Shown here in pieces: positions 8,494-31,209 of a DNA stretch of 64,000 bases (positions are counted from its first letter, which is position 1; the number at the start of each line of letters is the position of its first letter). The notes beneath the pieces are model-generated. The model was not told the origin of the DNA and did not search any database. It saw only the letters and a program-made list of their open reading frames with translations. Made by a program: the position numbers and the translations under genes. Source of the stretch: an uncultured Candidatus Saccharibacteria bacterium (GTDB taxonomy: Bacteria; Patescibacteriota; Minisyncoccia; Phycocordibacterales; UBA918); NCBI GenBank assembly GCA_964350735.1, contig CAYGKO010000003.1, positions 52,452-116,451 of the forward strand, written 5' to 3'.

Positions 8494-9255
8494 TTATGCC
8501 AGCGCTTTAATCGCTTTCATAATCGCTACCTTCACAGCCGCTTCTTCTGATGGATAGGTACCATCGATCGTTTGGGTTAGAGCCTCAATCGCAGCTTGTA
8601 CTTTACCGTGTGGAGTTTGATCAGCTACTTCTTTCAACATGTCTGAAAGAATGACTGATTCTCCATTTTGATGTCGGTACAACGCATCAAAGTCGGCTGA
8701 AGCACCAGCGAGGGCAATCATTGGACGCTGTCCAATAAGTTGATACGCTGCTACCACATTTCCTTCAATGATCGCTTCAGCGAGTGAGTTAGTTACTGGA
8801 GCCAGTTCAAACTCAGACCGCACAGCCTCTTTCTTAGCTTCAGAAACTACAATTGTTTCTTCGACTACAAGTGGTTGTGCCTTGAGCTCTTCTCGCTTTG
8901 CTGTCAGCTCTTCCATTCGATCACAGTTGAGGACTACCCAACCGTCTTCAGTTGGATAGGTCACCTTAGCTTCAGTAATCACCTTTTCCAAGAATGTCCG
9001 TCGGTTTAGATCCTTATGACATACATTAATGAAGTGCTGCATCGCATCACCTGAGATAAGCACTCGGTGTGTATGTGCTAAGTTTTCAAGTTCTTGCATT
9101 TCCTGACTTAATTCAGTCACTTCAGGATCAACTAATTCTGGCACTTCAGTAGCTACTACCGCTGCGTAGCCAACAGCTGGATTACCCGTTGGTAAGTTAC
9201 TCGGTGCAACCGCAGATGCGATTGTATTAGTAACAGTTTCCACTGTTTCTACCAC
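8494..9255 (-). CDS. Hypothetical 253-aa cytoplasmic protein (GTG start), overlapping the upstream surface-protein gene by 7 nt
   Basis: ORF with no TM segments. The start codon at 9253-9255 is GTG. The first in-frame ATG is about 52 codons downstream. Arrangement suggests translational coupling. Confidence 0.45.
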   Translation of the reverse strand: MVETVETVTNTIASAVAPSNLPTGNPAVGYAAVVATEVPELVDPEVTELSQEMQELENLAHTHRVLISGDAMQHFINVCHKDLNRRTFLEKVITEAKVTYPTEDGWVVLNCDRMEELTAKREELKAQPLVVEETIVVSEAKKEAVRSEFELAPVTNSLAEAIIEGNVVAAYQLIGQRPMIALAGASADFDALYRHQNGESVILSDMLKEVADQTPHGKVQAAIEALTQTIDGTYPSEEAAVKVAIMKAIKALA

Positions 9256-11852
9256 CGGTGATTCTGTCCGCTGTACTTCTGGCTCAGCATCTGTAGTTTT
9301 TTTTTGTAGATCTCATCTTCAGTTGTTACTACACCAGCTACTACAGAAGTACGATTCTTGTAGATGAATACGTATGCTACGAAGAGTGCCCAGAGCGTAA
9401 GAAGTGCGTAGAAGATGAATGTCAGAATTGGACCAGCTTCAAATCCAGTGTATGGCACTTGTGTCAGTGCAATACCAGCCACCCGTGGTTCTTGTGATCG
9501 GTTCTCGAGCACAACCACATCTTCGTCTTCCACTTCAATATTTACTGTACATTCTCGGTCTCGACTACCTCGTTCAACTACTAAAGTGTATTCAGTATCT
9601 TCAGTTGGTCGAACTCGGATACTTCCATCATCTACATCATCATCGTCATCAGTAGAGAAGATTTCTCGATCACCCTTATCTCCTTCGAAGATAGTAAGTT
9701 CTCGTCCTCGACTCGTTTCCCATGAGAGTGTGATTTGTTCACCTGCCTTGATCGTTCGATCAGATGCGGTGAATTCACAACGTGGTCGACTTGATCCTCC
9801 ACCACCTCCACCACCTCGATTTTCTACTGTAATTGTTTCAGTACATGTCACTGGAGTTTCTCCAGCTGCGATAGCAGTAAGTGTGTAGGTGATGTCACCA
9901 ATTGTAGAAGGAGCATTTACAGTGATATCACTATCAGCTGGGAGATTACTTCCGACTCCTTGGTCAATTGACACGCTCTCTGCATTTGTCGTATCCCACC
10001 GGAGGGTGAATGAACCATTTTCAAGTACGGTAGATGGAGTAGCTTGGAAGCTTTCACACACGATGTTGCTACCACTTACTCCTGGCACCACCACGTTAGT
10101 TGGGTCAGTGTCCGTTACTGTCGCACCATCTACAGCTGAATCTCCCGTCACATTTGCCACATTAGTGAATGAAGCTTGTACGTTAGACGTGGCACACGTA
10201 TAGGTATCTGAAGCCCCTTGCGCAAGGCTACCAATTGTCTTGTTACACGCTGCTTCAAGTGGGTCGGTTACTACTACGTTTACCAAATTTTCATTACCAG
10301 TGTTCGTCACTACGATCTCAAAGTTAGCAATGCCACCAGCTGATACTGTCTGTGTATCATCCTTATCAATAGCATCACGCTTGATGATTTCAATTGCTGG
10401 ATTAGTTTGTGTAACAACCGGTGTTACCACAACCGGTGTCGTACATACTGCGTCTGCCTGACCATCTTTACGAGCAGTTAGTGTATAGGTCGTATCGCCA
10501 AGCGCTGGTGTCTCAACAAGCGTAGTTTTATTAGCGTCTGTGCTAATAACCGTAGCTCCTTTAGCAAAGGTAACTGAATCAGCGTTAGTCGTTGTCCAGT
10601 TAAAATTTACCGTTCCTCCTAGAGTAAGTGACTGTGAACCTTTTGGATTCAAATCACAAGTCGGCGCATTAACTGCAACTGCTGTAGTCGTAAGTGTCGC
10701 CGGACACGTAGCAGTCTTTCCAGCCCCATTGTTTACGGTTACGGTGTAGGTTTTGCTGCCAAGATCAGACTGACTTACTGCCTTACTGCCAGCGTTGTTC
10801 GCAACTGTAATCACACCCACACCATTGTTAGCAGAAGCTGATGCAATATTTGATCCACTAACAGTCAGTGTTGATGCCGTATTTACAGTGACTGAACTTG
10901 GAGAGAATGAAGCAGTACAGATTGGATCTGGCACTACTACTGGTGCCGCTGTCGTCGTGAGGGTTGCTGTACAAGACCCAGGCTTACCTTGGTTGTTAAG
11001 TACTGCAATGGTGTAGGTTTTAGTTCCAACTGTTGTCTGGGTTACAGACTTACTACCAGCGTTGTTCGCAATTGTTACCGCTCCAACACTATTATTCACT
11101 GAAGCCGAAGCTAGGTTTGAACCATTGATTTGGAGTGTAGCCGGTGTATTTACCTGAACTGAAGCCGGATTAAATAGCGCCGTACATACTGGATCAGGAT
11201 CTGGTGCTGGTGTAGGTTTTGCATTTACTGTAATTTTCACATTACAAGTCCGCTCCACACCATCAGCGTTTTTCACTGTACCAGTGAATACACGATTTGT
11301 ACCAGTTACGGTCACAGTAGTACTAAGGGGCTGGTTATTTATACCAATCGCTCCCTTACCACGATCCAATTTCGCAGAAACAGCATTGGTTCCCTTAAGC
11401 GTAAACGTAACTTGGTCACCCGCAGTGATAGTCAAGTTAGACTGACCATTCACTTTAAGGACACAAGATGGAATTGGGGCTGATACAACTCCAGGGTCAT
11501 CACGATCAGGCTCTGGGTTAGTCGGAGTACTTGGCTCGTCATCACGACCGCTGCCGCTACCACAACCACCGCAACCATTTCCACCTCCAGAGTTACCAGA
11601 GCCACCATTTGATGTACCCCCGGTACCAAAACCGCCGTCTCCACCAGCACCTTCGCCACCGCCAGAACCAGAACCTCCTCCAGAGCCGCCAGAGCCACCG
11701 TCAGAGTCTCCGCCAGAACCAAAAGCTTCAGCTTGAATTTCTTCGCTTGAGAACTCAAAAAATGATTGTACTTGTGGGAGTGCAATATAAGAAACCACTA
11801 CCGCAACTGCGATTGGGAAAATTAATTTTTTGAATGGAATATTTTTTTTCAT
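9249..11852 (-). CDS. Large secreted surface protein (868 aa) with N-terminal signal/TM, Gly/Ser-rich linker, tandem Ig-like/DUF11-like repeats and a C-terminal VPYTG + hydrophobic + basic sorting-like signal
   Basis: ATG at 11852 (MKKNIPFKKLIFPIAVAVVV). Two near-identical ~90-aa domains (CTATLTTTA...SKTYT). C-terminus ...LTQVPYTGFEAGPILTFIFYALLTLWALFVAYVFIYKNR. Confidence 0.75.
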   Translation of the reverse strand: MKKNIPFKKLIFPIAVAVVVSYIALPQVQSFFEFSSEEIQAEAFGSGGDSDGGSGGSGGGSGSGGGEGAGGDGGFGTGGTSNGGSGNSGGGNGCGGCGSGSGRDDEPSTPTNPEPDRDDPGVVSAPIPSCVLKVNGQSNLTITAGDQVTFTLKGTNAVSAKLDRGKGAIGINNQPLSTTVTVTGTNRVFTGTVKNADGVERTCNVKITVNAKPTPAPDPDPVCTALFNPASVQVNTPATLQINGSNLASASVNNSVGAVTIANNAGSKSVTQTTVGTKTYTIAVLNNQGKPGSCTATLTTTAAPVVVPDPICTASFSPSSVTVNTASTLTVSGSNIASASANNGVGVITVANNAGSKAVSQSDLGSKTYTVTVNNGAGKTATCPATLTTTAVAVNAPTCDLNPKGSQSLTLGGTVNFNWTTTNADSVTFAKGATVISTDANKTTLVETPALGDTTYTLTARKDGQADAVCTTPVVVTPVVTQTNPAIEIIKRDAIDKDDTQTVSAGGIANFEIVVTNTGNENLVNVVVTDPLEAACNKTIGSLAQGASDTYTCATSNVQASFTNVANVTGDSAVDGATVTDTDPTNVVVPGVSGSNIVCESFQATPSTVLENGSFTLRWDTTNAESVSIDQGVGSNLPADSDITVNAPSTIGDITYTLTAIAAGETPVTCTETITVENRGGGGGGGSSRPRCEFTASDRTIKAGEQITLSWETSRGRELTIFEGDKGDREIFSTDDDDDVDDGSIRVRPTEDTEYTLVVERGSRDRECTVNIEVEDEDVVVLENRSQEPRVAGIALTQVPYTGFEAGPILTFIFYALLTLWALFVAYVFIYKNRTSVVAGVVTTEDEIYKKKLQMLSQKYSGQNHRW

Positions 11853-11968
11853 AATAAATTTGATAAGTAAGTAATGTGTTACCTCTGTATATTCCCACCT
11901 ACACCAGTACGCGAGAATATAAAAGGTGAGAAGCCGATCACAAAGTGACCGCCTTCCCAAATCTTGAA

Positions 11969-12523
11969 TCAGGAGCGCGGGTATGCATCACGACCCGGGT
12001 CGCAGACGCACGCCAAGGCGCTGTCGAGCGGCACCAAGGTGATGTTGTTACATACCGCCGGGACATAAACTTCCCAACGGTGATTAACATTATCCCCTTG
12101 TGGGACCGTGACCCACCATTTCCGACAGATGAACAGCTTGCGCGTCCATTCGTCGGTGACGACAGTCGGATTGATGGAAATGAACCCATCACCCGAAATC
12201 ATTGCACCTGGCAGTATCTTTCCGCGATACTGTGTATCCAGGTTGATGAGCTCGTCGCCGTCAGGTCGAGTCAGCAGAGCGTTTCGGATCATGATCCGCT
12301 CTCGCTGAGAAAGGTTCAGTCGCCCAATTGCCAGAGCTTCTCTGAAACCATCCTTAACGAAACGCTCTTGCAAGGATGCTCCACCCCCGTCTGACCAACG
12401 AAGAGTTCCGTCAGCCATGAGGGTTCCGTTCTGGAAGACCGGACCCTTAGGAGAATCTGCACCAACAGGAAGCGGAGCAATAAAGCTCGCAGCCATACCA
12501 GCACAGAATGAACGCCTGTTCAT
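11969..12523 (-). CDS. Hypothetical secreted protein with twin-arginine-like signal (MNRRSFCAGMAASFIAPLPVGA); part of the GC-rich island
   Basis: ATG at 12523 with AAGGA SD. About 60% GC, against about 50% in neighbouring genes. Confidence 0.6.
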   Translation of the reverse strand: MNRRSFCAGMAASFIAPLPVGADSPKGPVFQNGTLMADGTLRWSDGGGASLQERFVKDGFREALAIGRLNLSQRERIMIRNALLTRPDGDELINLDTQYRGKILPGAMISGDGFISINPTVVTDEWTRKLFICRKWWVTVPQGDNVNHRWEVYVPAVCNNITLVPLDSALACVCDPGRDAYPRS

Positions 12524-12526
12524 TGG

Positions 12527-13039
12527 CTATCCTTTCGGTTTGACCATCCAAATGGCCGCTGCGTTATCCTTCGAGTTAGCGAAGGCTGGATCATCATGCC
12601 TCGTCTCGATTGAGCCATGACAGTTGACCGTTGGCCCTCCATTTGCTGGAAAAGCTTTCTGGAGACCGATCGCTGGCCAAGAAGACGGTGCTTTGACACA
12701 GATGTCGCGACCCGGCGCCTTCATGCTGTCGGGCGCCTCGAAGTACCAGGTGCCGTTGTGCTCAAGCTCGAGCGTAACGACGTGTGTTTCGCCAGTCGGG
12801 TTGCCGCTGAGGTAGCCGAGAAAAGTGAACGTACCGGTAGCCGGCTTGATCTCACCCTTCTTCAGAGCTTTCTCGAACGCGACAATCATTTGGCCGTCAT
12901 CGAAGTTATATGCGCGGGCGATTTCCCACACCTTCTCAGATTCTTCAACGGCGACCAAACCGGTCCACCATTTCCCGTCAGCCAAAGCTGGGGTAACAAA
13001 GCAAAGCGCCATAACAGCGCTCAAAAGAATGCGAAGCAT
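12527..13039 (-). CDS. Hypothetical secreted protein (signal peptide MLRILLSAVMALCFVTPALA); part of the GC-rich island
   Basis: ATG at 13039 with GGAGA SD. The ORF-track start at 13075 is TTG. Confidence 0.6.
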   Translation of the reverse strand: MLRILLSAVMALCFVTPALADGKWWTGLVAVEESEKVWEIARAYNFDDGQMIVAFEKALKKGEIKPATGTFTFLGYLSGNPTGETHVVTLELEHNGTWYFEAPDSMKAPGRDICVKAPSSWPAIGLQKAFPANGGPTVNCHGSIETRHDDPAFANSKDNAAAIWMVKPKG

Positions 13040-13288
13040 GTCGCTCTCCAATTCTGATTCAATTTCAAAGTTCAATTACTCCCTCTACCATCCACGGCGA
13101 TAAGGTTGAACTTACTCGTGCGATGGCAGCGAGCTTGGTTGCAAGAAACGGACGACGCTCATAGGAGCGCGTTTCTTAGGACCAAGCTTGCTAGGAATAT
13201 GTTGTGAGATACTGCGACTTCCTCAATATGATGAGGACTCGCTTCGTTCATCTGTGAACTACTTTACTCTACTATTGTAGCATATCTA

Positions 13289-13431
13289 TTGACTTTTGTC
13301 AATATAATTGTCTAGTTATTTATTGGTCCAGCAATTTCTTCTAAAGAGGTAGAAAATTGGTAACTTGTACCCTGTGGGTATAAATTCAATATAGTCGTTG
13401 CACTCCTTATTTCATTCAACTTTTGTCAATA
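13289..13431. repeat. Two copies of the 13-mer ACTTTTGTCAATA (13292-13304 and 13419-13431) in an AT-rich intergenic region; the first copy is within the palindrome TTGACttttGTCAA
   Basis: Direct repeats read from the sequence. Lies upstream of the island genes and downstream of the sortase gene. Confidence 0.4.
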
Positions 13432-13482
13432 CTATGGTGCAACTGAATAATGGATCCGAGCGATCCTCAGAGCCATTATTAC

Positions 13483-14211
13483 TTATAGTTGTACGGTCTT
13501 TACTAATGTCGCTTCAAGGATAAACCGGTCATCTGTCGAGCCGAAGCTATCGCACGTTGCGAGCGTAAGCTTAGCCTTATCATCGCTCATTGGCACCGTC
13601 ACTTCAGAGGCTTTGGCTTCGTAGACGCGATCTACGCGGTAGATATATTCAGTATCGATAGACTGCACGCGCACGGTATCACCCCACGAGAGCTTCTGGA
13701 TACCGTTAAAGGCCTGAAAATTCTTATTGAGTACGTTCGGCAAGTAACTAGAATGGCCTAGAATAAGGATGTTTCCGGTATTTTTGAAGTCGGCTGAATC
13801 AGGATGACGTACTACTCCACCTAAAAGCGCCGCATCAAGGTCGGCAACAGCTCGAGAAGTTGGGTTTTTTACCACTACTTCCCGGCCACCAAGGGAGTCA
13901 AAAATGATCTTGGTCGGCAAGGCAGCCGCATCTAGTACCTCAGCTTTTGACTCAGGTTCAATCACTGCTAGTGGCGCCCGCTCTCGCACTTCTGCAACTG
14001 CTTCGACTACAGTGTCTGACACCCCAGCTACCAGCTCATCTACTATTGTCACCGCCGAATCAGAGGATTTTTCTACCGGCTCTGGAATGAAATCTACTAC
14101 AAACAGAACGAAATACGTGAACAGTACCGTACCAAAAAAGACCCCAAAAAAAGCGAGCTTTTGGCGCTTGATTTGCTCATATACGTCCCAAAAGGTGTCG
14201 GATAGGTTCAT
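13483..14211 (-). CDS. Sortase-family transpeptidase (N-terminal TM anchor)
   Basis: Conserved His (ILILGHSSY), catalytic Cys in a TLxTC motif (KLTLATCDSFG), and a downstream Arg. Length and topology are typical of a sortase. Confidence 0.7.
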   Translation of the reverse strand: MNLSDTFWDVYEQIKRQKLAFFGVFFGTVLFTYFVLFVVDFIPEPVEKSSDSAVTIVDELVAGVSDTVVEAVAEVRERAPLAVIEPESKAEVLDAAALPTKIIFDSLGGREVVVKNPTSRAVADLDAALLGGVVRHPDSADFKNTGNILILGHSSYLPNVLNKNFQAFNGIQKLSWGDTVRVQSIDTEYIYRVDRVYEAKASEVTVPMSDDKAKLTLATCDSFGSTDDRFILEATLVKTVQL

Positions 14212-14434
14212 AACAATAAGGATATTAGTGATCGATATAATACACTATATTTTTATAAAGTCAATACTGATGCTTGACATTACTAAGTAATATGATATGA
14301 TATTGGAGTCAAATTACTCGAGCGTTCGAGTTTGGTTCTCACTTGCATATCCTGTTCTCCCCCACTCATTAGTGAGTGGTGATTTCTCGGTATGTAGTGA
14401 TAGCTGACATTTAAATGTAACTATCCTTTATTGT

Positions 14435-15481
14435 ATGAATAATGTAACTCAAGAATCAAAAGATTCAGTCATGAAGACCATGGCAGTAGTGGGATTTGTT
14501 GCAGTCATCATCTTTGCAGTATGGCTCGCAGTCCAAATCGTACAGCTCATCCCTGGCGCCTTCACCTCACTCGCCTCTATTGCAGATGGTGTCTACGGCA
14601 ATCGTCCGGTCGCTGAATTTACAGTCGCTTCAAATGAAAGTGTGGTAAACACTGGCGAAGACTTCACACTTTCGTGGACAAACGTAAACCAAAACGGTAC
14701 GTACTCATTTATGTACAAATGTACTGATGGTGTATCAGTTGATATCCGAAACAATGCTGGGGAAATCGTCAGCATTGCTTGCGACACACCACTTGGTCTT
14801 GGTACTGAGGTAACATCACTAGAAATTGCAGCTGCTTCCGAAAAGAAGCGGTTTACAGACGTGGGTTATACCGTCGCCTTCCGCCCAAATGGAGCGGCAG
14901 ATGTAGCCGCTTCACAAAGTGGTAAGTTCACAGTAGTGAACCCCAGTATTCCACAAAGTGTCGCTGTAGCAGATGATACAGACGAATCAGAAGGTGAAGT
15001 AGCTGGTGAAACAACCTCTACTGAATCAGAAGAAGATACTGTTGATCCGGCTCCAGTCGTATCTACTCCAGCTCCCACAGTGATCGAAACACCCATCATT
15101 GCTATCCCAACTTCAGATCCCAACGGATTTACTGACTTGGAAGTGCGATTCCTCGGCGTTGGTACCATGGACAATAATAACCGTTTCACCCAAACCGCAA
15201 CTATCGACAACGATCGTCGGGGAGCGTATCAGTTTGAAGTGAAGAACACTGGTACTAAAACTTCTACTGCTTGGGAGTATGCTGCCATTCTTACATCAGG
15301 GACTGAATACGAATCAGGGCGACAAGATCCACTCAAGCCAAACGAACGATCAGTAATCACTCTTGGTTTTGATGCAGTTGGTGAAACTGGCGTCCAATTC
15401 TTCGGAGCTACCGTTTCAGGCGGAAGTGACCGAAACCGAAACAACAACAGCTTCACCTGGGCAGTTGAAGTAACGAACTAA
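14435..15481 (+). CDS. Hypothetical membrane-anchored extracytoplasmic protein (348 aa) with acidic Thr/Ser linker
   Basis: ORF with a TM segment (MAVVGFVAVIIFAVWLAV). Followed by a strong terminator. Alternative ATG at 14471. Confidence 0.6.
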   Translation: MNNVTQESKDSVMKTMAVVGFVAVIIFAVWLAVQIVQLIPGAFTSLASIADGVYGNRPVAEFTVASNESVVNTGEDFTLSWTNVNQNGTYSFMYKCTDGVSVDIRNNAGEIVSIACDTPLGLGTEVTSLEIAAASEKKRFTDVGYTVAFRPNGAADVAASQSGKFTVVNPSIPQSVAVADDTDESEGEVAGETTSTESEEDTVDPAPVVSTPAPTVIETPIIAIPTSDPNGFTDLEVRFLGVGTMDNNNRFTQTATIDNDRRGAYQFEVKNTGTKTSTAWEYAAILTSGTEYESGRQDPLKPNERSVITLGFDAVGETGVQFFGATVSGGSDRNRNNNSFTWAVEVTN

Positions 15482-18050: not shown

Positions 18051-20000
18051 CTACCGCGTCTCCCACTTTTCTGCTGCTACTGCTTTATAGACAGTATCCA
18101 TTACTGCATTCACTTCCTCATCAGTGAGGGTTTTTTCGTTTGATTGAAACACTAAACGGAAGGCTAGGCTGGTCCGGCCGTCTTTGGTGAACTCATCGAC
18201 GAAGGTAGTACGGACTCGCAAATCTCCAGCTGCTTCATTGAGGACTTTTTCGACATCCCCTTTCGTCAAATCTTCCTCTGGAGAATTTGACACCCACATC
18301 GCGATGTCACGACTCATATGCTGGTAGAGTGAAAACGGCTCGTAGACAATCTCGTCAGCTGCTGCAACTGGCTCGTACGCGGTCGGTGCCGGTAGCGCAC
18401 TAAAGAGCTTCGTGAAGTTAATTTCAGCCACTCCTTTCTCAATAGTCCAATCGATTGGACTATTGAGAAGCGTTTCTATTTCAGTGCACACTGATTCTAA
18501 AATCTTATCTTCTTTGCCGGTATACCCGCTCGACTTTAGACGGACACCGAGGCAAAGTGCGATGTGTTCGGTAACTCCTAAGTCACCCCCCTTATCGAAG
18601 ACCGTCCCGATCTCAAATACCCTCGTATCAGTCGCGCCAAATAAATCAGTCCGACCAGCATTAGCGTCAAGTGTCTCGGTGATGTTTTTAATTAAAGATG
18701 AACGCAAAAAACTTTTATCACTCGCTAGTGCATTACGGAGTTGCACGGTATCTTTCTTTCGAAACGACGAAGTGATCACTTCAGAGAAGCCGAGCTGCAG
18801 TAAGCAGTCTCGTACTTTCTCGCTGTAATAATGTCGGGCATTTAGTTCAGTGAGGGCGATCGGTTCTGGTACAACTGACTCCACTTTGTCATAGCCATGC
18901 AGTCGACCGATCTCTTCAATGAAGTCTTCTTCAATAGTCAAATCAGTCCGCTCAGTAGGGCCAGTACACTGCAACACCTCATCTTCAATCACTACCGTGA
19001 TTCCAGCTCGTTCCAAAATAGCTACCATGGCAGGCACGGCAAGTGACAGCCCCAACAGAGCATTCACTGTCTCTGGACGCACGATGACTGTCGGCACTTT
19101 CAGCTCTTGCAGATACACATCCACCATACCTTCACACTGTCCACCGGCAATCTCCGTAATCAACTTGATGATATCGGCTTGCGCGTATGGTGGCAGAGCC
19201 CGTGACGGTTCGTTTTCAAAGCGCTTACTCGCATCAATCACAATCCCGAGGTTACGAGCTGTCTTCCGGGTGATAGTGGGGTTCCAGTGGGCAGCTTCGA
19301 TGATGACTTTCGTCGTATCAGCGTGCACACCAGCAAACCGACCACCCTTCACTCCAGCGAGTCCAATCGGTGTATTAGATGAATTATCTACCACCAAGAC
19401 TTCTGTACCGGTTAGTTCTACAACGCGATCTTCATCCTTGCCGCCTTCAGCGAGCAAGCTGACTGTCTCACCTACTTGTGCGTAGCGCACCCCAAACCGC
19501 CAGGCACCATCTACTTGCGGAAACAAATCGGCGTCATAAGCATGCAGTGGCTGCCCGAGCGCATACATAACGTAGTTAGTCGCATCGACAATATTATTGA
19601 TCGGACGTTGTCCGAGGGCTTGAAGGCGGGTCTGGAGCCAGGCCGGTGAGTCTTTGATTTCAATACCAGTAATGAGTGACGCCGTAAAGCGTGGACAGAT
19701 TTCAGCTGACTCAATATCAACACTAATAGTATCGAGTGGTGCAATCTCAGGAGTGTTTTGTAGCGGATCGTGGACCAACGACTGCTTAAGCAGCGTCGCA
19801 ATTTCTCGAGCAATTCCCCGATGACACAGACAGTCTGAAGACCGGTTCGGCAGCACATCAACATCAATTACCCAATCATCACCTTTTTGTTCAACCCCTT
19901 CAATTTCAAATGAGTGGAAGGTCAACAAACCAGCCAGCGCTTCAGCTGACGGAATATCGGCACCTAAATAATCTTGCAACCAGTTATACGAAACTAACAT
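18051..20000 (-). CDS. pheT: Phenylalanyl-tRNA synthetase beta subunit (649 aa, shortened)
   Basis: N-terminus MLVSYNWLQDYL, B3/B4 and B5 regions, and a C-terminal anticodon-binding-like domain. Confidence 0.9.
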   Translation of the reverse strand: MLVSYNWLQDYLGADIPSAEALAGLLTFHSFEIEGVEQKGDDWVIDVDVLPNRSSDCLCHRGIAREIATLLKQSLVHDPLQNTPEIAPLDTISVDIESAEICPRFTASLITGIEIKDSPAWLQTRLQALGQRPINNIVDATNYVMYALGQPLHAYDADLFPQVDGAWRFGVRYAQVGETVSLLAEGGKDEDRVVELTGTEVLVVDNSSNTPIGLAGVKGGRFAGVHADTTKVIIEAAHWNPTITRKTARNLGIVIDASKRFENEPSRALPPYAQADIIKLITEIAGGQCEGMVDVYLQELKVPTVIVRPETVNALLGLSLAVPAMVAILERAGITVVIEDEVLQCTGPTERTDLTIEEDFIEEIGRLHGYDKVESVVPEPIALTELNARHYYSEKVRDCLLQLGFSEVITSSFRKKDTVQLRNALASDKSFLRSSLIKNITETLDANAGRTDLFGATDTRVFEIGTVFDKGGDLGVTEHIALCLGVRLKSSGYTGKEDKILESVCTEIETLLNSPIDWTIEKGVAEINFTKLFSALPAPTAYEPVAAADEIVYEPFSLYQHMSRDIAMWVSNSPEEDLTKGDVEKVLNEAAGDLRVRTTFVDEFTKDGRTSLAFRLVFQSNEKTLTDEEVNAVMDTVYKAVAAEKWETR

Positions 20001-20009
20001 ATCTAAAAA

Positions 20010-20741
20010 TTAAAACTGATTAACAAATCTTAGGTCCCCCGTATAGAGATCACGCACATCATTAATACCGTACTTCATGACGGCCAGACGATCAATTCCC
20101 ATTCCAAAGGCAAAACCAGAATATACCTCTGGATCAATCCCACAGTTACGAAGCACATTGGGGTGCACCATACCGGCGCCCATCATTTCTATCCACTTAC
20201 CTTTGAGCTTGGAGTCACCCGAGAGAATCTTCATATCTACTTCAACCCCTGGTTCTACAAACGGGAAGAAGCCAGGCCGGAAACGCACCTCTACTTCACC
20301 GCCAAGGAAACGTTCGAAGAAATATTCAAGCGTACCCTTAAGGTTTCCTAAGTGCACACCTTTATCTACCATCAAACCTTCACACTGATGAAACTGGGCT
20401 TCGTGCGTCGCGTCCGTGGCTTCGTTACGAAACACCTTCCCTGGCGCAATAATCCGAATCGGCGGCGTATGATTCTCCATGTAGCGAATCTGGATATTTG
20501 AAGTCTGCGTACGCAGCACCGTTGGCTCAGACACATCACTATCCTTAAACCAGAAGGTGTCTTGCATGTCTCGCGCGGGATGATCTTTTGGCACGTTCAG
20601 CTGATCGAAGTTGTAATGCTCGGTATCAACTTCTGGACCTTCCGCAAACACAAAACCGATCTCAGCAAAGATACTATTGATCTCGCTAATCATTTGCGTC
20701 AGCGGGTGCTGGTGGCCAATTTGTGTAGTTTCTGTTGTCAT
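20010..20741 (-). CDS. pheS: Phenylalanyl-tRNA synthetase alpha subunit (243 aa catalytic core)
   Basis: Class II motifs: FRPGFFPFVEPGVEVD and GAGMVHPNVL. Confidence 0.9.
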   Translation of the reverse strand: MTTETTQIGHQHPLTQMISEINSIFAEIGFVFAEGPEVDTEHYNFDQLNVPKDHPARDMQDTFWFKDSDVSEPTVLRTQTSNIQIRYMENHTPPIRIIAPGKVFRNEATDATHEAQFHQCEGLMVDKGVHLGNLKGTLEYFFERFLGGEVEVRFRPGFFPFVEPGVEVDMKILSGDSKLKGKWIEMMGAGMVHPNVLRNCGIDPEVYSGFAFGMGIDRLAVMKYGINDVRDLYTGDLRFVNQF

Positions 20742-20762: not shown

Positions 20763-21917
20763 TTATTCCGTGTCTAATGTCGTGAATACTTCAAAGTATA
20801 GTCCGTCCTCCGCAATGTAAATTTGTCCTCCATCGAGGATTACTTTAAATTCTGTACCGGGATATAGTAGCTGGGTATTCTGCCAAGCACGGTCGTCGAT
20901 CTCAGTGACATATAGTCCATCTTCAAGATGCAGTAACACCAAATCAGAACTGCCTGGTAAAAAATTAAAAAACTTTACATCTTGCTGTAAACGATCGAGC
21001 TTAATTGACGTACGACAATATTGATCATTATCAGTCAATGTTTCAGTACTGCTCGCAAGCTCAGCGAACACATCCTCTGCCACATGGGTTCCGTATAGAA
21101 TATCTAACGTACTGCTAGCGCCATAGGTAACACAAAAATAATACGGGGCTTCGTTTTGTACGCCACGCCACTGTAGCACCAGTTCTGTCCCAGACTCAGC
21201 AAAGCGCAGGTCACGACTAATAACCGTGGTAGTAGCTGATGACGTAGCTGCTGTAGTCGTAGGGGTTGCTGAACTAAACGTGAACGGTGCTTCAAGTCGG
21301 TCTTGCACTCGTTCAAGCAAAGTTGAATCAATCGTCGATGTAGCACGAAATAAATCTGCTACAAAGGTATGTTCAGGATTTTCTACACCAATTCGAGCCA
21401 GCTGGCTGGTACTGGTCGCAAACTGATTGGTAACTGAAGCATGCTGAAAAACTAAAGCTGACGTGCTAGCTACTGAGAGCAGCGATGTACCAGTTGCTGT
21501 TTGGTACGGTGTAATCAGTCGCACCTGAGCTTCTGTCGGCAAATTAAAAGAGAATGACTCTGTCACAATCCCCGGAAAGATCGACAGCTCTTTAACCCAC
21601 GTTTGCAAGCCAGGAGCTTGGACGTGCACCCGGTGCTGGCCTGAAGTAATATCTTCTAAATACAAAGCTCGTCTGAACAGTCGGCTTTTATCGATTGGGG
21701 ACTCATCAATGTACACATCAATGTCATCAAGATCATTACCAAGATAAATACCGCCCATACTAACAATGGTCGTCTCTTCATCATCAAACACTAATCGGTT
21801 ACCCGAAGTATAAAAAATCAACGCTGGCATTGCCATAATAAAAATCAAAAAACAAGACCAGAACACGACGACGCGTTTGCGATACGATAACACTGAAATT
21901 TGTGGTTCTTCTGGCAT
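20763..21917 (-). CDS. Hypothetical membrane-anchored protein (384 aa) immediately downstream of the GT2 synthase; candidate synthase partner
   Basis: N-terminal TM segment (VVVFWSCFLIFIMAMPALIF). 7-nt gap to the GT2 gene. Thr/Ser-rich segment. Confidence 0.55.
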   Translation of the reverse strand: MPEEPQISVLSYRKRVVVFWSCFLIFIMAMPALIFYTSGNRLVFDDEETTIVSMGGIYLGNDLDDIDVYIDESPIDKSRLFRRALYLEDITSGQHRVHVQAPGLQTWVKELSIFPGIVTESFSFNLPTEAQVRLITPYQTATGTSLLSVASTSALVFQHASVTNQFATSTSQLARIGVENPEHTFVADLFRATSTIDSTLLERVQDRLEAPFTFSSATPTTTAATSSATTTVISRDLRFAESGTELVLQWRGVQNEAPYYFCVTYGASSTLDILYGTHVAEDVFAELASSTETLTDNDQYCRTSIKLDRLQQDVKFFNFLPGSSDLVLLHLEDGLYVTEIDDRAWQNTQLLYPGTEFKVILDGGQIYIAEDGLYFEVFTTLDTE

Positions 21918-21923
21918 ATTAGT

Positions 21924-23516
21924 TTATGAATTTTTACTCCCTTTTGGCGTCACCCAGAATCCCAGATAACGACCGAACATCAGTCGCGTCTGAGCTTCAA
22001 GTCCTGGCAACGCACTAAACGCTACCATTGTGATTGGGACCATAATCCACTGCAGCGCCATCACTACGTACTTAAAGCGGCTATGCCCATCGGGGCGTTC
22101 TGGCATCAGGGAGATCGAAATCACTGAAGACAAAACTAATCCAAGCATCGCTGCAGTCAGTAGGTTACGGACCAAGATCGGCAACTCATACGACAGTACC
22201 GTCTGGTGGAACGCAGCAGTCCCCAAGAAGATCGGTGCCCATCCTAAGATAAACAGAATCAGTGGATTCGTAGCGAGCGACCAGTACCCTTCCCCTTGCA
22301 GTGCACCCACCACCAAACGCTTACGCAGTGGGATCGATTTGTTCTTAACAAAGTGATACGTGATGTAGCACCAGTTCTCAGTTCCATACGACCAACGTCG
22401 GTGCTGCTTATAAATATTTTTGACCGTCCCCCATAAGCTCGGAGCTACTGTAGCGTCCATCGCCACCGGATACGAAAGCGGCACAATATCAAAATTACCA
22501 TTATTTGCGACAAATAGATTCCAGTAGATTCGTGAGTCCTCACTGACTACATTGGCTTGACCATAGCCGATCTCCCAAAGGGCCTGAAAGCTCACTGAGT
22601 GCGAAGAGAAAGTAGCCGCTCGGTCTGGTCGTTCTTGGGTAATCATCTGCCAGAACGTACTACTCATCGCCATCACCCGAGAAATAGCTGGCGCTTCCCA
22701 GAAATTATTTACAAATAGGGGCACTGGCTGGTAAGCCGACTTATAGGGTTGCTCAGCTGTCATGAAGTGCCAAATCAGGCAATTGAAATAATCAGGATAC
22801 ACCACGGTATCTATATCAAAAACTGAAACGAGTACGTTCTTATACTCAATATTCTGCACATCAAGGATCCCTTCTCGCACCTTACCAAGCGCCCAGTGCA
22901 CGTTGGAACCCTTACCAGCAATTTCACCCGTAATATCATTTGGATGTTCGGTCACTAGAATATTTGGAAATATGTCTTGCCACTTCTCTTTAGCTGCGTA
23001 CCCACGCGCGATCGCTTCTTCACCAGCACGTGACTCTGCTGCCAATACGACAATTAATTTTTCCTTATCATATTTCACTTCGCTCAATGCCCGCATCGTC
23101 GCTTCAATCACTTCAGTTGGCTCTTTATAATATGGAAACACCAACACGTGATGAAATTGGTTATAAGTAAATCGCGACACTAACTGTTCCCAGTCGAGAC
23201 TCATGTGGTGCTTCAGTCGTTTCCAGTTATAGCGCACGTGATACGACAAGAAGGCCGTCTTGAGCACCCAGTATACTGAGAACGCAATAATAAAATACGC
23301 CGCCCAAAATGACGCGTAGATTGAAGCTAATACAATACCGATCAAAAAAGCCCACGCTAGAAAACCGGGCACTATCTCAAGAAACCGATATAAAATTCGA
23401 TCACGACCAGACAGCTCGTTGGCTCGGGCTACCTTAAAATCGCTCCGGGTTGCGTAAGGAAGCACGTGCGTCTTGTCCGACGTCAGTTCTGAATGGGAGG
23501 CATCTAGTTGGTCCAT
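21924..23516 (-). CDS. Processive family-2 glycosyltransferase (cellulose/chitin/hyaluronan-synthase-like), multi-TM
   Basis: D, DxD (VFDIDTV), SED (VVSEDSRIYW) and QxxRW (KQHRRWSYG) motifs. N- and C-terminal TM bundles. Confidence 0.8.
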   Translation of the reverse strand: MDQLDASHSELTSDKTHVLPYATRSDFKVARANELSGRDRILYRFLEIVPGFLAWAFLIGIVLASIYASFWAAYFIIAFSVYWVLKTAFLSYHVRYNWKRLKHHMSLDWEQLVSRFTYNQFHHVLVFPYYKEPTEVIEATMRALSEVKYDKEKLIVVLAAESRAGEEAIARGYAAKEKWQDIFPNILVTEHPNDITGEIAGKGSNVHWALGKVREGILDVQNIEYKNVLVSVFDIDTVVYPDYFNCLIWHFMTAEQPYKSAYQPVPLFVNNFWEAPAISRVMAMSSTFWQMITQERPDRAATFSSHSVSFQALWEIGYGQANVVSEDSRIYWNLFVANNGNFDIVPLSYPVAMDATVAPSLWGTVKNIYKQHRRWSYGTENWCYITYHFVKNKSIPLRKRLVVGALQGEGYWSLATNPLILFILGWAPIFLGTAAFHQTVLSYELPILVRNLLTAAMLGLVLSSVISISLMPERPDGHSRFKYVVMALQWIMVPITMVAFSALPGLEAQTRLMFGRYLGFWVTPKGSKNS

Positions 23517-23590
23517 ACAATAATAGGGCTACTATACCCTATTTTAGGTATATTTAAAGGTGTTTTAGTCACGCACTACTGTATGCTGTT

Positions 23591-23623
23591 GGCCACGCTG
23601 TATGGCAAGCATACAGCGTGGCC
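23591..23623. repeat. Hairpin repeat copy A (14-bp perfect stem ggccacgctgtatg / catacagcgtggcc, 5-nt loop)
   Basis: Read directly from the sequence. Related copy at 23727-23758. Confidence 0.6.
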
Positions 23624-23726
23624 TCACCTCGCGGCTCGTAAATTTCAGTACTCCGGCTTGACTCAGATAAAGCACAAAATAAATTTACCTACTGACAAAG
23701 ACCGCTCACACCATCTTTTTGACCTG

Positions 23727-23758
23727 GGCCACCTGTATGGCAATCATACAGCGTGGCC
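23727..23758. repeat. Hairpin repeat copy B (13/14-bp stem, same family as copy A)
   Basis: ggccacctgtatg gcaat catacagcgtggcc. Confidence 0.6.
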
Positions 23759-23774
23759 TCACTCGGAAGTGGGC

Positions 23775-23793
23775 GTCTGAACGGAGTTCAGAC
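23775..23793. repeat. Small perfect hairpin gtctgaac-gga-gttcagac
   Basis: 8-bp stem read from the sequence. Confidence 0.5.
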
Positions 23794-23794
23794 T

Positions 23795-23856
23795 AGAGTA
23801 AACAAAATAGCTGCGTATGAAAGTTTACTTTCATACGCAGCTATTTTGTTTACTCT
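23795..23856. repeat. Near-perfect 62-nt palindrome (about 28-30 bp arms) downstream of tRNA-Thr on the minus strand
   Basis: agtaaacaaaatagctgcgtatgaaagt, tt, actttcatacgcagctattttgtttact. Confidence 0.7.
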
Positions 23857-23893
23857 CCCGTTCGTTTCACTCACTCCACTCCTCTCGTATCGG

Positions 23894-23966
23894 AGCCACC
23901 TGTCAGATTCGAACTGACGACCTGCGGTTTACAAAACCGATGCTCTACCAACTGAGCTAAGGTGGC
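23894..23966 (-). tRNA. tRNA-Thr (anticodon UGU), discriminator U, CCA not encoded
   Basis: Manual cloverleaf: acceptor GCCACCT/AGGTGGC, D arm GCTC/GAGC, anticodon stem TCGGT/ACCGC with loop TTTGTAA, T arm GTCAG-TTCGAAT-CTGAC. Confidence 0.85.
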
Positions 23967-24016: not shown

Positions 24017-24442
24017 TTACCCCTTGAGACTTTTCTCACGTAGAGATACTTTTTCTGCATCACTAAGTGAAGTTGCTTCTTTATGCTCTGCGATTGAATC
24101 GAGATGAGAATTTTCTTTTTCTGATTTTATAGACTTAACCACTGAACGATTTCGTCTTTGCAAAAGAAGGATTTGGCTTTGGCCAAATTGCAAAACAGCT
24201 AAGCAGGCAGCTAGTACAGTATGAATAACAAAGTGAATCACAATACGCACCGTACCAACTCCCAGCCACGTTCCGATTTTAGTACAAAGCAACCAAAATG
24301 CACTCACAATACGATCAAGAAATGAGCGAAATTTTAATAGAAATAAGCGACTGCCACGCACGTGCTCTGCATGAAACAATAAACCAAGCGCTGCTAATAT
24401 AGCAGCGCTTGATCCAGCAATAATGAGACTAATCTCTAACAT
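24017..24442 (-). CDS. Hypothetical small membrane protein (141 aa), AT-rich, downstream of tsf
   Basis: ORF with 3-4 predicted TM helices. Occupies the position where pyrH often sits. Confidence 0.5.
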   Translation of the reverse strand: MLEISLIIAGSSAAILAALGLLFHAEHVRGSRLFLLKFRSFLDRIVSAFWLLCTKIGTWLGVGTVRIVIHFVIHTVLAACLAVLQFGQSQILLLQRRNRSVVKSIKSEKENSHLDSIAEHKEATSLSDAEKVSLREKSLKG

Positions 24443-27332: not shown

Positions 27333-28694
27333 CTAACTTCCATCTAGAGTACGAATATCCTGTTCAAGCTGTGCCTTTCGCTCCATCACCTGATCCCCGT
27401 AGAAGAAGTTAGCTGGGTTACTTGCCCCTCCCCATCCGGCGTAATAACGTAATGCTGCTAGTCTATCTCCACCCCAAGTACCATTTGCCCCATTATCACG
27501 AAGGAGCAGTGCTGTCGCCGTAAAAGCATCTTGATTTACAAACGGACTGGAAGGGATATTTTTACCAAGCAGCGTCCGAATAGCATCACTACTTCGGCTG
27601 TATTGCCAACCACTACCAGTGTTCACAAAACCACCGTAGATAGCCCAAGTAGAAGGAATGAACTGTGATGCACCCATCGCACCTCCCCACCCAATCCGTG
27701 AACCATTTTGAATCAAAGGACATGAAACCGCCTGCGTCGCCGGGTCAAACCCCAGTTCAGCTGCGATCGCTAGGAACACTGGTTTATCACGGTCAGGATG
27801 CATAATATCCCTTCCTGACGTTACATCTCCCATAGTACAACCACCAATGTTGCTCCCAAATGAGGACTCTTGTTGCAAGATGGCTAAGATAAGTGATGGC
27901 TCTACTCCCACTGCTCCACCAGCGGTCTTCGCCAGTGCGATTGCCTCAGTTAACGGAATCTGTCCACCCCCACCCAAAAGATCAAACAATTCTGCCCGGA
28001 GCTGTGCCACAGTTTTTTGCTGTGAAGCCAACAGCTCTTGGTACGCCTCTTCTTCACCCTTGGTAACAGTAAGGATTTGTTCTTTCTCTTGCTCGCGTCG
28101 TTCAATCGCAGCTTTTTCTTGCTCTTGCAGCACCTTAAGCTGAGCTTCGGTCAGCTGTTTGTCTTCTAGGGAATTTTTCTGCAGCTCAGTGTCAGTCTTG
28201 ATCTCGTCGAGAACTACCATGGACTCATTCAGTGACTCATTAATTGATCGGAAACTTTCAAAGTCCGTAAAAAATTCAGAAAAGTTCTGATTACTCAACA
28301 AAACTTCTACTAACGAAAAATCATCCACTTCTTCAGTCTTACGAATTAGCTCGCCAATTGAATTACGTTGCTTCGTCAGTCGCTCACCTAAAATAATCAG
28401 TACCTCTTCCTTATCTCCAATCTGTTCAGTCAATTGCTCAATCGCAATTGACCGGGCCCGGATGCCCAACTGGGCTTTATCAATCTGTCCATCAATAATG
28501 GTCAAATCTCGTTCTAGTGATTGACGCTCTTCTTGCTTAGAATCTAGATCACGCTGACTTTGAATCATCTGCATCTCTACCTGCTGCAATTGAGCTTCCA
28601 GTCGGGCCTTGCGCTCATCATCGGTCTCAGCCATAACGCCGAGAGGAAAAACCCAAAAAGCGAGAAGTAGAAAACTGGCAACAGGACGTAACAT
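27333..28694 (-). CDS. Secreted coiled-coil protein with C-terminal lytic transglycosylase (SLT)-like domain
   Basis: Signal peptide starting from the ATG at 28694. Long heptad-rich N-terminal region. LAILQQESSFGSN resembles the SLT catalytic ES motif. Confidence 0.6.
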   Translation of the reverse strand: MLRPVASFLLLAFWVFPLGVMAETDDERKARLEAQLQQVEMQMIQSQRDLDSKQEERQSLERDLTIIDGQIDKAQLGIRARSIAIEQLTEQIGDKEEVLIILGERLTKQRNSIGELIRKTEEVDDFSLVEVLLSNQNFSEFFTDFESFRSINESLNESMVVLDEIKTDTELQKNSLEDKQLTEAQLKVLQEQEKAAIERREQEKEQILTVTKGEEEAYQELLASQQKTVAQLRAELFDLLGGGGQIPLTEAIALAKTAGGAVGVEPSLILAILQQESSFGSNIGGCTMGDVTSGRDIMHPDRDKPVFLAIAAELGFDPATQAVSCPLIQNGSRIGWGGAMGASQFIPSTWAIYGGFVNTGSGWQYSRSSDAIRTLLGKNIPSSPFVNQDAFTATALLLRDNGANGTWGGDRLAALRYYAGWGGASNPANFFYGDQVMERKAQLEQDIRTLDGS

Positions 28695-28781
28695 AGCAAT
28701 AGTATACCAATGAATTGGCAACATGAAAAAGGACGACACATCCTTGAGATGTGTCGTCCTTTCCCTGTATCGAGTTTAGAA

Positions 28782-30582: not shown

Positions 30583-31209
30583 TTAGTCCAACAATGCTCG
30601 GCAAAGGGTCAGATCATTTCCGGCTCCAAATGTTGCGTCTGCTACAACTGCTTCTCCACAGTATTCGTTCGCTCCTTTAAGGATAAACCAAACACTGTAA
30701 TGCCGCGGCTGACACACCGCCTGTTTTCCAACTTGATCAGGATTACTTTGATTGGTTGGAGACGTTGGCTGAGCTGGATCATGAATAACACATCCACTCA
30801 ATGCCGGTGAACTATACGCCACTCCACCACTCGTAAATTCCTGTCGCGGCAGTTGTGACATATATTTTGCCATCTCTGTATAGAGTAGATTGCCTGCGGG
30901 CGCAGGGTTTGCTTCTGAAATACTGCCAAGGCACCTTCCAACCGCTCCATCGCCGATGCAAACCTTGCGGTGCCTGAATGCGTCTGACTGACTTCCAAAA
31001 GCAATCGGATACACCCCTAAATCTGAATACACTAAATTCAGTGCTTTTTCATACTCATTCATCTGCGATAGAATTGCGGCATTATCTGCCTTGTCTCGAG
31101 ACACGTTTAAACTGGCCAATACGACTACCGCTAAAATACCGATGATCGCCATCACCACCAACAACTCTAGTAACGTAAAACCTTTTTTAGTATTAATCAG
31201 AAACTTCAT
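30583..31209 (-). CDS. Type IV pilin-like protein (prepilin N-terminal methylation motif)
   Basis: KKGFTLLELLVVMAIIGIL class III signal. Overlaps the transketolase C-subunit gene by 17 nt. Confidence 0.75.
   Translation of the reverse strand: MKFLINTKKGFTLLELLVVMAIIGILAVVVLASLNVSRDKADNAAILSQMNEYEKALNLVYSDLGVYPIAFGSQSDAFRHRKVCIGDGAVGRCLGSISEANPAPAGNLLYTEMAKYMSQLPRQEFTSGGVAYSSPALSGCVIHDPAQPTSPTNQSNPDQVGKQAVCQPRHYSVWFILKGANEYCGEAVVADATFGAGNDLTLCRALLD

Follow-up and report, generated by a model that had tools for sequence, protein, structure and literature searches.

A candidate minimal cellulose-synthase-like enzyme and a co-encoded membrane partner in Paceibacteria

The window analyzed here, a stretch of 64,000 nucleotides, encodes a 530-aa GT2 enzyme directly followed by a 384-aa membrane protein, and it is plausible that this pair represents a minimal cellulose-synthase-like variant with no PilZ domain and a non-BcsB partner. 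In the reading we favor, which has about an even chance of being correct, the pair is a glycan synthase with a constitutive, core role in the cell envelope of the Paceibacteria (Patescibacteria/CPR), the lineage from which the window comes. The GT2 matches core translation genes in conservation, and its product is therefore probably a core sugar polymer of the cell envelope; the label of exopolysaccharide synthase in the original prediction is probably the wrong frame, as conservation at a housekeeping level points to a core envelope function. We likewise consider a synthase plus partner plausible, and it is within this reading that we infer processivity, translocation, and physical interaction of the two proteins, as well as the donor sugar and the product.

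Both genes (Table 1) are genuine rather than chance open reading frames, as 2917 homologues of the GT2 and 746 of the partner were recovered at E<=1e-3. The GT2 stop codon and the partner ATG are separated by 6 nt (actaat), where seven had been counted originally, and pheS and pheT follow on the same strand after the short gaps already described, of 21 nt between partner and pheS and 9 nt between pheS and pheT. No terminator-like site was found between the partner gene and pheS, and pheS-pheT are probably co-transcribed with the pair. On the other side, a perfect long hairpin is the likely upstream limit of the transcription unit. A promoter-like site lies just 5' of the GT2 start codon, and the count of such sites across the region is not above shuffle expectation. 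A 141-aa membrane protein encoded further upstream was considered as a third subunit and rejected: it is syntenic, yet tRNA-Thr and the hairpin intervene. Nor is it similar to the small 3-TM proteins encoded beside distant GT2 homologues.

Table 1. Positions in the window of the gene pair, its motifs and domains, and its neighbors
Feature	Position	Strand	Basis or remark
530-aa GT2 enzyme gene	21924..23516	(-)	ORF list
E161 codon	23034..23036	(-)	At second Asp of BcsA DDG; hhalign LAAES vs ILDDG (E. coli BcsA)
DxD (D234-I-D236)	22809..22817	(-)	Aligned to BcsA FDCDHV
S325-E-D327, TED equivalent	22536..22544	(-)	Aligned to TED of BcsA and PgaC
Q371-H-R-R-W375, QxxRW motif	22392..22406	(-)	Aligned to PgaC QRLRW
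F520-W-V-T-P-K525, FxVTxK-type gating loop	21942..21959	(-)	Invariant in A1; five residues from C-terminus
384-aa partner gene	20763..21917	(-)	ORF list, AF2 model, position 3' of GT2
Partner membrane helix (~residues 16-38)	21804..21872	(-)	Hydropathy; helix 12-38 in model
Partner PEGA/transthyretin-like beta-sandwich (~residues 40-135)	21513..21800	(-)	
Partner C-terminal extracytoplasmic domain (~residues 232-378)	20784..21224	(-)	Alignment A2
pheS 20010..20741 and pheT 18051..20000	18051..20741	(-)	Pfam; co-directional, downstream of pair
Promoter-like site TTTAAA-16-TATAGT	23531..23558	(-)	Consensus match only
Terminator-like hairpin	23803..23848	(-)	Between GT2 gene and tRNA-Thr
tRNA-Thr(UGU)	23892..23966	(-)	Upstream neighbor; between pair and tsf plus 141-aa membrane protein
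141-aa membrane protein	24017..24442		Upstream of pair

The 530-aa protein is a very divergent GT2. It scores at threshold in Pfam (Glyco_trans_2_3), and searches of PDB sequences with either the single sequence or a profile (E<=10) returned no match. A GT-A Rossmann-like catalytic domain was recovered by family profile, and the predicted fold is of the membrane-integrated cellulose/hyaluronan-synthase type. The NCBIfam model PgaC_IcaA (TIGR03937) gave 21 bits against a cut-off of 422.3, with the match limited to the TED-QxxRW stretch, and assignment as a poly-beta-1,6-GlcNAc synthase of the PgaC/IcaA type was rejected on this score, which is far below the equivalog cut-off. For the motifs we used an alignment of close homologues (A1) and one of the wider family at 25-55% identity (A3, 46 members aligned). 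Alignment of A1 to BcsA and PgaC with hhalign mapped PxYxE, DDG (as AE), K(A/G)(G/S)N, DxD, FFCGS (as FSSHS), TED, and QxxRW. Residues DID 234-236, SED 325-327, and QHRRW 371-375 are invariant in the close homologues, while D234, D327, Q371, R374, and K525 are invariant throughout the 25-55% identity family and D236 and W375 are at least 90% conserved there; QHRRW falls within a predicted interface helix (361-375), and D327 is the putative catalytic base. Of the motifs originally listed, DxD, SED, and QHRRW thus stand, aligned and conserved, but the first D does not, its place being taken in the hhalign mapping by a glutamate, E161, that is invariant in A1 and at least 90% conserved in A3. A loss of essential catalytic residues was looked for by alignment, and DxD, the acidic base, and QxxRW are all retained. 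As judged from the model and the alignments, the predicted fold and catalytic motifs are those of membrane-integrated synthases, in line with the processive-type GT2 class proposed at the outset.

A further motif, the FWVTPK gating loop, was absent from the earlier list. All 46 aligned family members carry an FxVTxK-like motif a few residues from their end, followed by a basic tail; the motif is strictly [FY]xVTxK in most of them, with single substitutions in some, and K525 is invariant. Every residue of FxVTxK is needed for the activity of BcsA and CesA8 (PMC10592267; its role in these enzymes is also described in PMC10374906), and hyaluronan and chitin synthases have WGTR/KG in its place (PMC10592267). 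The GT2 is laid out as two N-terminal TM helices, the cytoplasmic GT-A domain, interface helices, two C-terminal TM helices, an IF3-like helix, and the gating loop. Only four membrane-spanning helices are thus predicted, with modest confidence in the membrane part (pLDDT 55-65), and the chain ends right after the gating loop. Judged by loop charges across the family, residues 469-481 and the tail are cytoplasmic, which is why helix 480-502 is taken to be IF3-like.

Compared with BcsA of the BcsA-BcsB system, and with plant CesA/Csl, the enzyme shares the GT-A domain, PxYxE, K(A/G)(G/S)N, DxD, a TED-type motif, QxxRW, and FxVTxK, all in the same order, and the same run of interface and membrane helices up to the gating loop (IF2, two TM helices, IF3, gating loop). 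It differs from BcsA in having Glu for Asp at DDG and in missing both the last two channel helices and PilZ, for which there is no Pfam match and no sequence beyond the gating loop. In being compact and without PilZ, it is like the class I hyaluronan synthases (XlHAS1 and CvHAS, with alignments of 315-349 residues) and PgaC/IcaA, of which PgaC aligns over the TED-to-QxxRW region.

The partner begins with a membrane helix, after which come a PEGA/transthyretin-like domain, a linker rich in Ser and Thr, and finally a C-terminal domain (AF2 model, pLDDT 79). The single N-terminal hydrophobic helix and the large remainder agree with the original description of a single-TM protein with a large extracytoplasmic domain, and from sequence and model it is predicted to be an N-in single-pass membrane protein with a large extracytoplasmic part. 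A juxtamembrane motif, PxLIFYTxGxR (residues 31-41), starts in the helix and runs 9 nt further, to ~21795; its residues P31, F35, Y36, G39, and R41 are invariant in A2. The segment that follows was found to be a PEGA/transthyretin-like beta-sandwich. The C-terminal domain carries invariant C262 and C301 and the motif EIDDRAWQNTQ; it has no Pfam or NCBIfam match, comparison with PDB folds gave no confident match but only weak beta-propeller-like hits at low TM-scores, and a PDB sequence search with the partner returned noise only. Like BcsB, the partner is co-encoded, single-pass, and built of extracytoplasmic beta-rich domains. Unlike BcsB, it is anchored at the N-terminus and made of PEGA plus a novel domain with no BcsB similarity, and homology to BcsB was rejected (hhalign of A2 against E. 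coli BcsB, probability 0.2%). The original statement that the system lacks a PilZ domain or a BcsB-type partner therefore holds. That a small or single-pass membrane partner can complete a synthase is a principle known from PgaCD and IcaAD, although PgaD and IcaD are small membrane partners, whereas the protein described here is large and extracytoplasmic.

In the mechanism we propose, the 530-aa protein would be an inverting, metal-dependent GT2 of the cellulose/hyaluronan-synthase type, with its cytoplasmic GT-A domain binding the nucleotide sugar. D327 would act as the base, with the acceptor end positioned at the membrane interface by W375, the last residue of QHRRW; the beta-linked chain would then cross the membrane while growing. 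Six helices of BcsA line its channel. The GT2 ends at the gating loop with four, from which we infer a path completed in trans; the downstream partner, through its N-in helix, is the most likely contributor, with small membrane proteins or oligomerization as further candidates. Outside the cell, the PEGA and novel C-terminal domains may accept the chain, guide it, or anchor it in the wall; by function, though not by descent, the partner would be the counterpart of BcsB. As to the donor, the FxVTxK loop and KGSN resemble those of the hexose-using BcsA and CesA, unlike the WGTR/KG-type loop of GlcNAc polymerases (PMC10592267). The chain is possibly started on undecaprenyl-PP-GlcNAc, as in the WbbF-type synthase-dependent pathway.

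The best structural match of the GT2 is not a channel-forming synthase but PcManGT of Pyrobaculum calidifontis (PDB 6yv7, 14% identity), a mannosyltransferase described as a 'minimal cellulose-synthase-like fold' that takes GDP-mannose as donor and has been placed in N-glycan assembly. Compared with it by fold, the GT2 has two further N-terminal membrane helices and a C-terminal gating loop. QxxRW also occurs in non-translocating enzymes, such as NodC and glycolipid synthases, which counts against the mechanism above. It is possible, though rather unlikely in our estimate, that the GT2 is non-processive or oligomer-forming and adds one or more sugars to a polyprenyl-PP-linked glycan at the cytoplasmic face of the membrane, like PcManGT; after flipping, other proteins would use the glycan to build a wall polymer or to glycosylate proteins, and the partner would be a downstream handler or acceptor outside any channel. 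Against this, QxxRW and FxVTxK are fully kept and the lysine is invariant, and the catalytic role of the gating loop has been shown in the processive BcsA and CesA8 (PMC10592267). Hyaluronan synthases and BcsA also align over more residues than PcManGT does, membrane part included. A lipid-linked primer, finally, would fit a processive WbbF-type synthase as well (PMC2841628).

The suggestion of such a primer comes from distant CPR relatives, in which a WecA-like gene lies directly 3' of the GT2 homologue at three loci and GT4 genes lie nearby at two, contexts that suggest the chain may start on undecaprenyl-PP-GlcNAc. This arrangement matches the logic of WecA, adaptor glycosyltransferase, and synthase in the WbbF-type pathway (PMC2841628), a likeness that rests on the gene neighborhood of distant relatives, as no WecA-like or GT4 gene was found near the pair within this window. 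A glucose-1-phosphate nucleotidyltransferase is encoded directly 5' of the homologue at one locus, in a Saccharibacteria relative, and small 3-TM proteins are encoded directly upstream of some distant homologues. A broader version of our proposal, which we put forward tentatively and regard as unlikely, is that CPR bacteria at large have 'split' minimal synthases that end at the gating loop, start on undecaprenyl-PP-GlcNAc, and make an essential, undescribed wall glycan, with the path completed by separate membrane proteins: the PEGA partner in Paceibacteria and the small upstream 3-TM proteins elsewhere. Literature searches on CPR glycosyltransferases, on links between PEGA and polysaccharides, and on Saccharibacteria Tn-seq found nothing specific to this GT2 family.

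The pair is part of a conserved string, rpsB-tsf-small membrane protein-tRNA-Thr-GT2-partner-pheS-pheT-gyrB, in which tRNA-Thr lies 5' of the GT2 gene in all 46 related loci scanned, inverted in 10. Conservation of the GT2 (median identity 66%) is comparable to that of tsf and pheS (77% each), with rpsB at 62% and pheT at 54%; in the 55% identity lineage L093 the values are 55% for the GT2, 61% for tsf, 57% for pheS, and 46% for rpsB. Since the whole rpsB-to-gyrB stretch is syntenic in the clade, adjacency alone is weak evidence, and the two proteins might be neighbors by gene order only, the PEGA protein having an unrelated surface function. In keeping with this, the partner is by far the faster evolving of the two (median identity 39%), and relatives at 27-41% identity lack it in the vicinity of the GT2, which implies an enzyme without a strict need of this partner. 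We nonetheless judge mere adjacency improbable. Of 80 species-representative loci, 79 have the partner 3' of the GT2, the sole exception being a contig that ends at the GT2 gene, so that the originally proposed two-gene unit is kept in every one of these loci that extends past the GT2, including L060, where ~1.5 kb lie between the two genes; it is kept in L093 as well. Their junction is the tightest in the string (median gap ~7 nt), and the partner stays in L031, L080, and L087, from which pheS-pheT have departed. The invariant residues at the partner helix and juxtamembrane segment also suggest, at the level of sequence, a specific contact within the membrane.

We consider it more improbable still that the GT2 is a membrane glycolipid synthase, with diacylglycerol or some other lipid scavenged from the host as the acceptor of the hexose. 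GT2-type monoglucosyl-diacylglycerol and ceramide glucosyltransferases also carry D, DxD, and (Q/R)xxRW, and have a similar size and topology, with N- and C-terminal membrane helices around the GT-A domain. These organisms depend on host lipids, and an enzyme highly conserved in them, with the glucose-1-phosphate nucleotidyltransferase directly 5' in the Saccharibacteria relative, would fit such a role. However, no glycolipid-synthase family was matched in Pfam or NCBIfam, the only matches being Glyco_trans_2_3 and, weakly, PgaC_IcaA; WecA-like and GT4 genes as neighbors and an extracytoplasmic partner point to a glycan chain, and the gating loop matches cellulose-synthase-type enzymes (PMC10592267).

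A functional coupling to pheS-pheT, for example through envelope-translation co-regulation or a moonlighting PheRS, is highly improbable and was rejected on the synteny breaks, for despite the short gaps, the lack of a terminator-like site before pheS, and an order that L093 and ~73 of the 77 testable loci keep, the link is broken in L031, L080, and L087, absent from all eight distant CPR contexts examined, and of a kind with the mixed housekeeping operons usual in reduced genomes. The adjacency to aminoacyl-tRNA synthetase genes, singled out originally as an unusual coupling, appears to be no more than gene order conserved within a longer housekeeping string. The PheT of L093 carries an NlpC/P60 domain.

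A core envelope glycan synthase, the reading we prefer, bears on both the enzymology of such synthases and the biology of these bacteria. The GT2 is the smallest cellulose-synthase-type architecture seen here with the gating loop kept, and it offers a natural test of the minimum number of helices a polysaccharide-translocating synthase requires and of whether a partner can supply the remainder in trans. To our knowledge, almost nothing has been described of the CPR/Patescibacteria envelope beyond peptidoglycan, pili, and S-layers. A glycan synthase that equals translation factors in conservation, in genomes of 0.6-1 Mb, is likely to produce a structural or host-contact polymer. If the 'split' arrangement is true, it would provide ultra-small bacteria with a core polymer of their envelope.

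The four genes of the original prediction were all recovered at the same coordinates on the minus strand (see the table), and the gap between the glycosyltransferase family 2 enzyme (GT2) and its membrane partner is indeed short, at 6 nt from stop codon to next ATG rather than 7. Because they have 2917 and 746 homologues, respectively, at E<=1e-3, GT2 and the partner are real genes; current databases name the former 'glycosyltransferase family 2' or 'cellulose synthase/PNAG synthase-like' and the latter 'hypothetical'. Against Pfam, GT2 matches Glyco_trans_2_3 only, at threshold (27.1 bits, cut-off 27), and the window's partner has no match. PheS, which consists of the core domain alone, and PheT, in which no N-terminal tRNA-binding domain was matched, both fall short of typical bacterial lengths, and those of relatives are equally short (240 and 644 aa).

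Features of the locus, of the wider window and of related loci
Feature	Location	Strand	Basis or detail
GT2 gene	21924..23516	minus	ORF; 530 aa
Partner gene	20763..21917	minus	ORF; 384 aa
pheS	20010..20741	minus	ORF + Pfam; 243 aa
pheT	18051..20000	minus	ORF + Pfam; 649 aa
Spacer, tRNA-Thr/GT2	23517-23891		375 nt
Perfect hairpin, 29-bp stem	23803-23848		in spacer
Shorter hairpin, two copies	~23589-23625; ~23727-23760		in spacer; GGCCACGCTGTATG...CATACAGCGTGGCC
Membrane protein, charged C-terminal tail	24017-24442	minus	141 aa
DUF11/DUF7507 surface protein	9249-11960		
Sortase	13483-14211		
SLT-like transglycosylase with long coiled-coil	27333-28739		
Pilin-like protein with N-methylation motif	30583-31209		
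fn3 and WxL-interacting PG-binding proteins	35374-38749		
Giant ORF	39711-48953	minus	3080 aa
Giant ORF	48962-59167	minus	3401 aa
Partner N-terminal helix	residues 12-38		AF2 model; short basic cytoplasmic segment before it
Partner beta-sandwich	residues 40-135		AF2 model
Partner mixed region	residues ~136-208		AF2 model; short strands and helices, pLDDT 60-90
Partner linker	residues ~209-228		AF2 model; disordered, Ser/Thr-rich
Partner C-terminal domain	residues 232-378		AF2 model; mostly beta
Small protein upstream of GT2, abutting or overlapping	L094 2807-3103; L095 5640-6011; L096 2466-2816; L098 5638-5997		distant loci
PheRS beta subunit	L093 9214-11559		781 aa

The nearest fold match of GT2 is PcManGT (score 18.8, 277 aligned residues), then Xenopus hyaluronan synthase (HAS) 1 (17.3, 315), BcsA (15.9 and 15.3; 263 and 317) and Chlorella virus HAS (15.5, 349), with CesA, chitin synthase, cyclic glucan synthase and CslF6 next. 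Although hhalign pairs GT2 with E. coli BcsA and PgaC at weak significance (E ~1e-3), it aligns all canonical motifs: FPYYKEP with VPTYNED, LAAES with ILDDG (E161 occupying the DDG position), GKGSN with AKAGN, FDIDTV with FDCDHV, ATFSSHS with ATFFCGS, SED with TED, and QHRRW with QRLRW. Among 1.84 billion cluster representatives, a search recovered 271 clusters at E<=1e-30, and H191, E198, D234, D327, Q371, R374, P494, and K525 are invariant among 46 full-length members (25-55% identity). A feature absent from the original prediction lies at the C-terminus, where all 46 aligned members carry an [FY]xVTxK-like motif (with single substitutions in some) and then a basic tail, ending a few residues on; the window's copy is FWVTPK (residues 520-525). 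In BcsA and CesA, FxVTxK forms the gating loop, which touches UDP and in which every residue is required for activity, whereas HAS and chitin synthases have WGTR/KG at this place (PMC10592267; PMC10374906). Family-averaged charges put loop 433-445 outside and both loop 469-481 and the tail inside, and because the latter two share a side, the hydrophobic helix 480-502 is predicted to be a non-spanning, IF3-like interface helix; four membrane-spanning helices are predicted. The order IF2(QxxRW)-TM-TM-IF3-gating loop is identical in BcsA, and GT2 ends where BcsA goes on with TM7, TM8, and PilZ. Up to the gating loop, sequence and model suggest the build and working mode of the BcsA/CesA/HAS class. 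GT2 belongs neither to the BcsA-BcsB system nor to the PgaC family, as PilZ and BcsB are absent and it scores 21 bits against a 422-bit NCBIfam cut-off.

In the AF2 model of the partner (pLDDT 79), the beta-sandwich forms a domain of PEGA/transthyretin-like type: Foldseek matches it to that fold (E 2.5e-4), Pfam PEGA is matched in 11 of 32 family members, and the orthologue in L093, a locus from a more distant Paceibacteria lineage, reaches 31.9 bits. The C-terminal domain is marked in the family alignment by the motif EIDDRAWQNTQ and a pair of invariant cysteines, and sequence and fold searches found no confident relative of it. Descent of the partner from BcsB was rejected, as comparison revealed no relatedness, and clear homology to an unrelated function was looked for and not found.

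All named homologues of both proteins are from Patescibacteria (Paceibacteria, Kaiserbacteria, Nomurabacteria, and Parcubacteria). The order rpsB-tsf-small membrane protein-tRNA-Thr-GT2-partner-pheS-pheT-gyrB holds almost throughout the 80 species-representative genomes examined, with the partner downstream of GT2 in 79 (median gap ~7 nt) and the sole exception a contig ending at GT2. The 141-aa membrane protein, which has no family assignment, directly follows tsf in most relatives (25-38% identity), and the tRNA lies between its gene and GT2. This tRNA-Thr(UGU) was upstream of GT2 in 46/46 relatives scanned among loci L002-L087; its opposite orientation in 10 of them indicates that small inversions have recurred there. 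The spacer that follows varies widely in length between genomes and is highly structured in the window (MFE -160.6 kcal/mol, z = -12); its hairpins could represent terminators or small repeat elements. Given this spacer, a promoter-like site ending 15 nt ahead of the GT2 ATG, and a tRNA of variable orientation, the pair is predicted to begin its own transcription unit. A scan of the window sequence found no terminator-like site between partner and pheS, so co-transcription with pheS-pheT is plausible. The unusual coupling to aminoacyl-tRNA synthetase genes that had been proposed did not hold up: in L031, L080, and L087, pheS-pheT is missing after the pair and gyrB follows, and pheS-pheT was not found near GT2 in any distant relative examined. 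The adjacency appears to reflect the preservation of gene order in a streamlined genome, a functional link being unsupported. The PheT of L093 is an odd fusion, with an NlpC/P60 domain (E 3e-15), a cysteine peptidase/amidase domain, inserted in the B5 domain of this aminoacyl-tRNA synthetase.

Relatives of GT2 at 27-41% identity are all CPR where named (CPR1, Doudnabacteria, and Saccharibacteria), and no partner was found within 6 kb of them. A WecA-like polyprenyl-phosphate GlcNAc-1-P transferase is directly downstream in three distant loci (TIGR02380 101-109 bits, above their mraY scores), GT4 genes are nearby in two, and in a Saccharibacteria relative 2 nt separate GT2 from an upstream gene for a glucose-1-phosphate nucleotidyltransferase; further genes in individual loci are one that is GalU-like and others for a polyprenyl glycosylphosphotransferase, a UDP-sugar dehydrogenase, and PMT_2. 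Immediately upstream of GT2 in 4/8 distant loci is a 98-123-aa protein with about three predicted hydrophobic segments, mutual similarity being detectable only for L096 versus L098; these may be accessory synthase subunits. Such neighbors tie the GT2 family to envelope glycan assembly, and they raise the possibilities of small membrane subunits and of a lipid-linked primer for the product, as in the WbbF synthase-dependent route. Elsewhere in the window, envelope-related genes occupy 9249-15481 and the further intervals tabulated. The two adjacent giant ORFs, whose only domain matches are Laminin_G_3 (concanavalin-like lectin) and LVIVD repeats, probably encode giant surface proteins.

GT2 combines the fold, catalytic motifs, and gating loop of the cellulose-synthase type with a predicted cytoplasmic active site and C-terminus, and its partner is predicted to be extracytoplasmic, membrane-anchored, and PEGA-bearing. 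In the reading we prefer, with confidence evenly balanced, GT2 would draw on a nucleotide sugar to polymerize a beta-linked glycan and would translocate the chain to the outside; the partner's helix would help complete the path formed in BcsA by the missing TM7-8, and its outer domains would guide or anchor the chain. The main rival, which we consider rather unlikely, is a transferase resembling PcManGT that would act on a lipid-linked acceptor and translocate nothing; it has the nearest fold match on its side, and against it stand the retained QxxRW and gating-loop motifs. Less probable still is a glycolipid synthase, given a gating loop of the cellulose-synthase type. Also less probable is that the partner is merely syntenic, which fits its absence beside distant relatives and sits poorly with a pairing so tight and conserved.

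Median identity to the window proteins, slightly biased by selection of the 80 genomes on GT2 similarity, is 81% for gyrB, 77 for tsf and pheS, 66 for GT2, 62 for rpsB, 54 for pheT, and 39 for the partner. The ranking is the same in L093, which was found independently of that selection (tsf 61, pheS 57, GT2 55, rpsB 46, pheT 32-37, and partner 23). Because GT2 ranks among its housekeeping neighbors in both comparisons, it is under housekeeping-level constraint, which argues for a core rather than an accessory biofilm role. The class itself is familiar, and its function here is one we infer; what is notable is the architecture and the degree of conservation of a CPR-specific family of C-terminally minimal synthases, joined in Paceibacteria by a partner of a new type.
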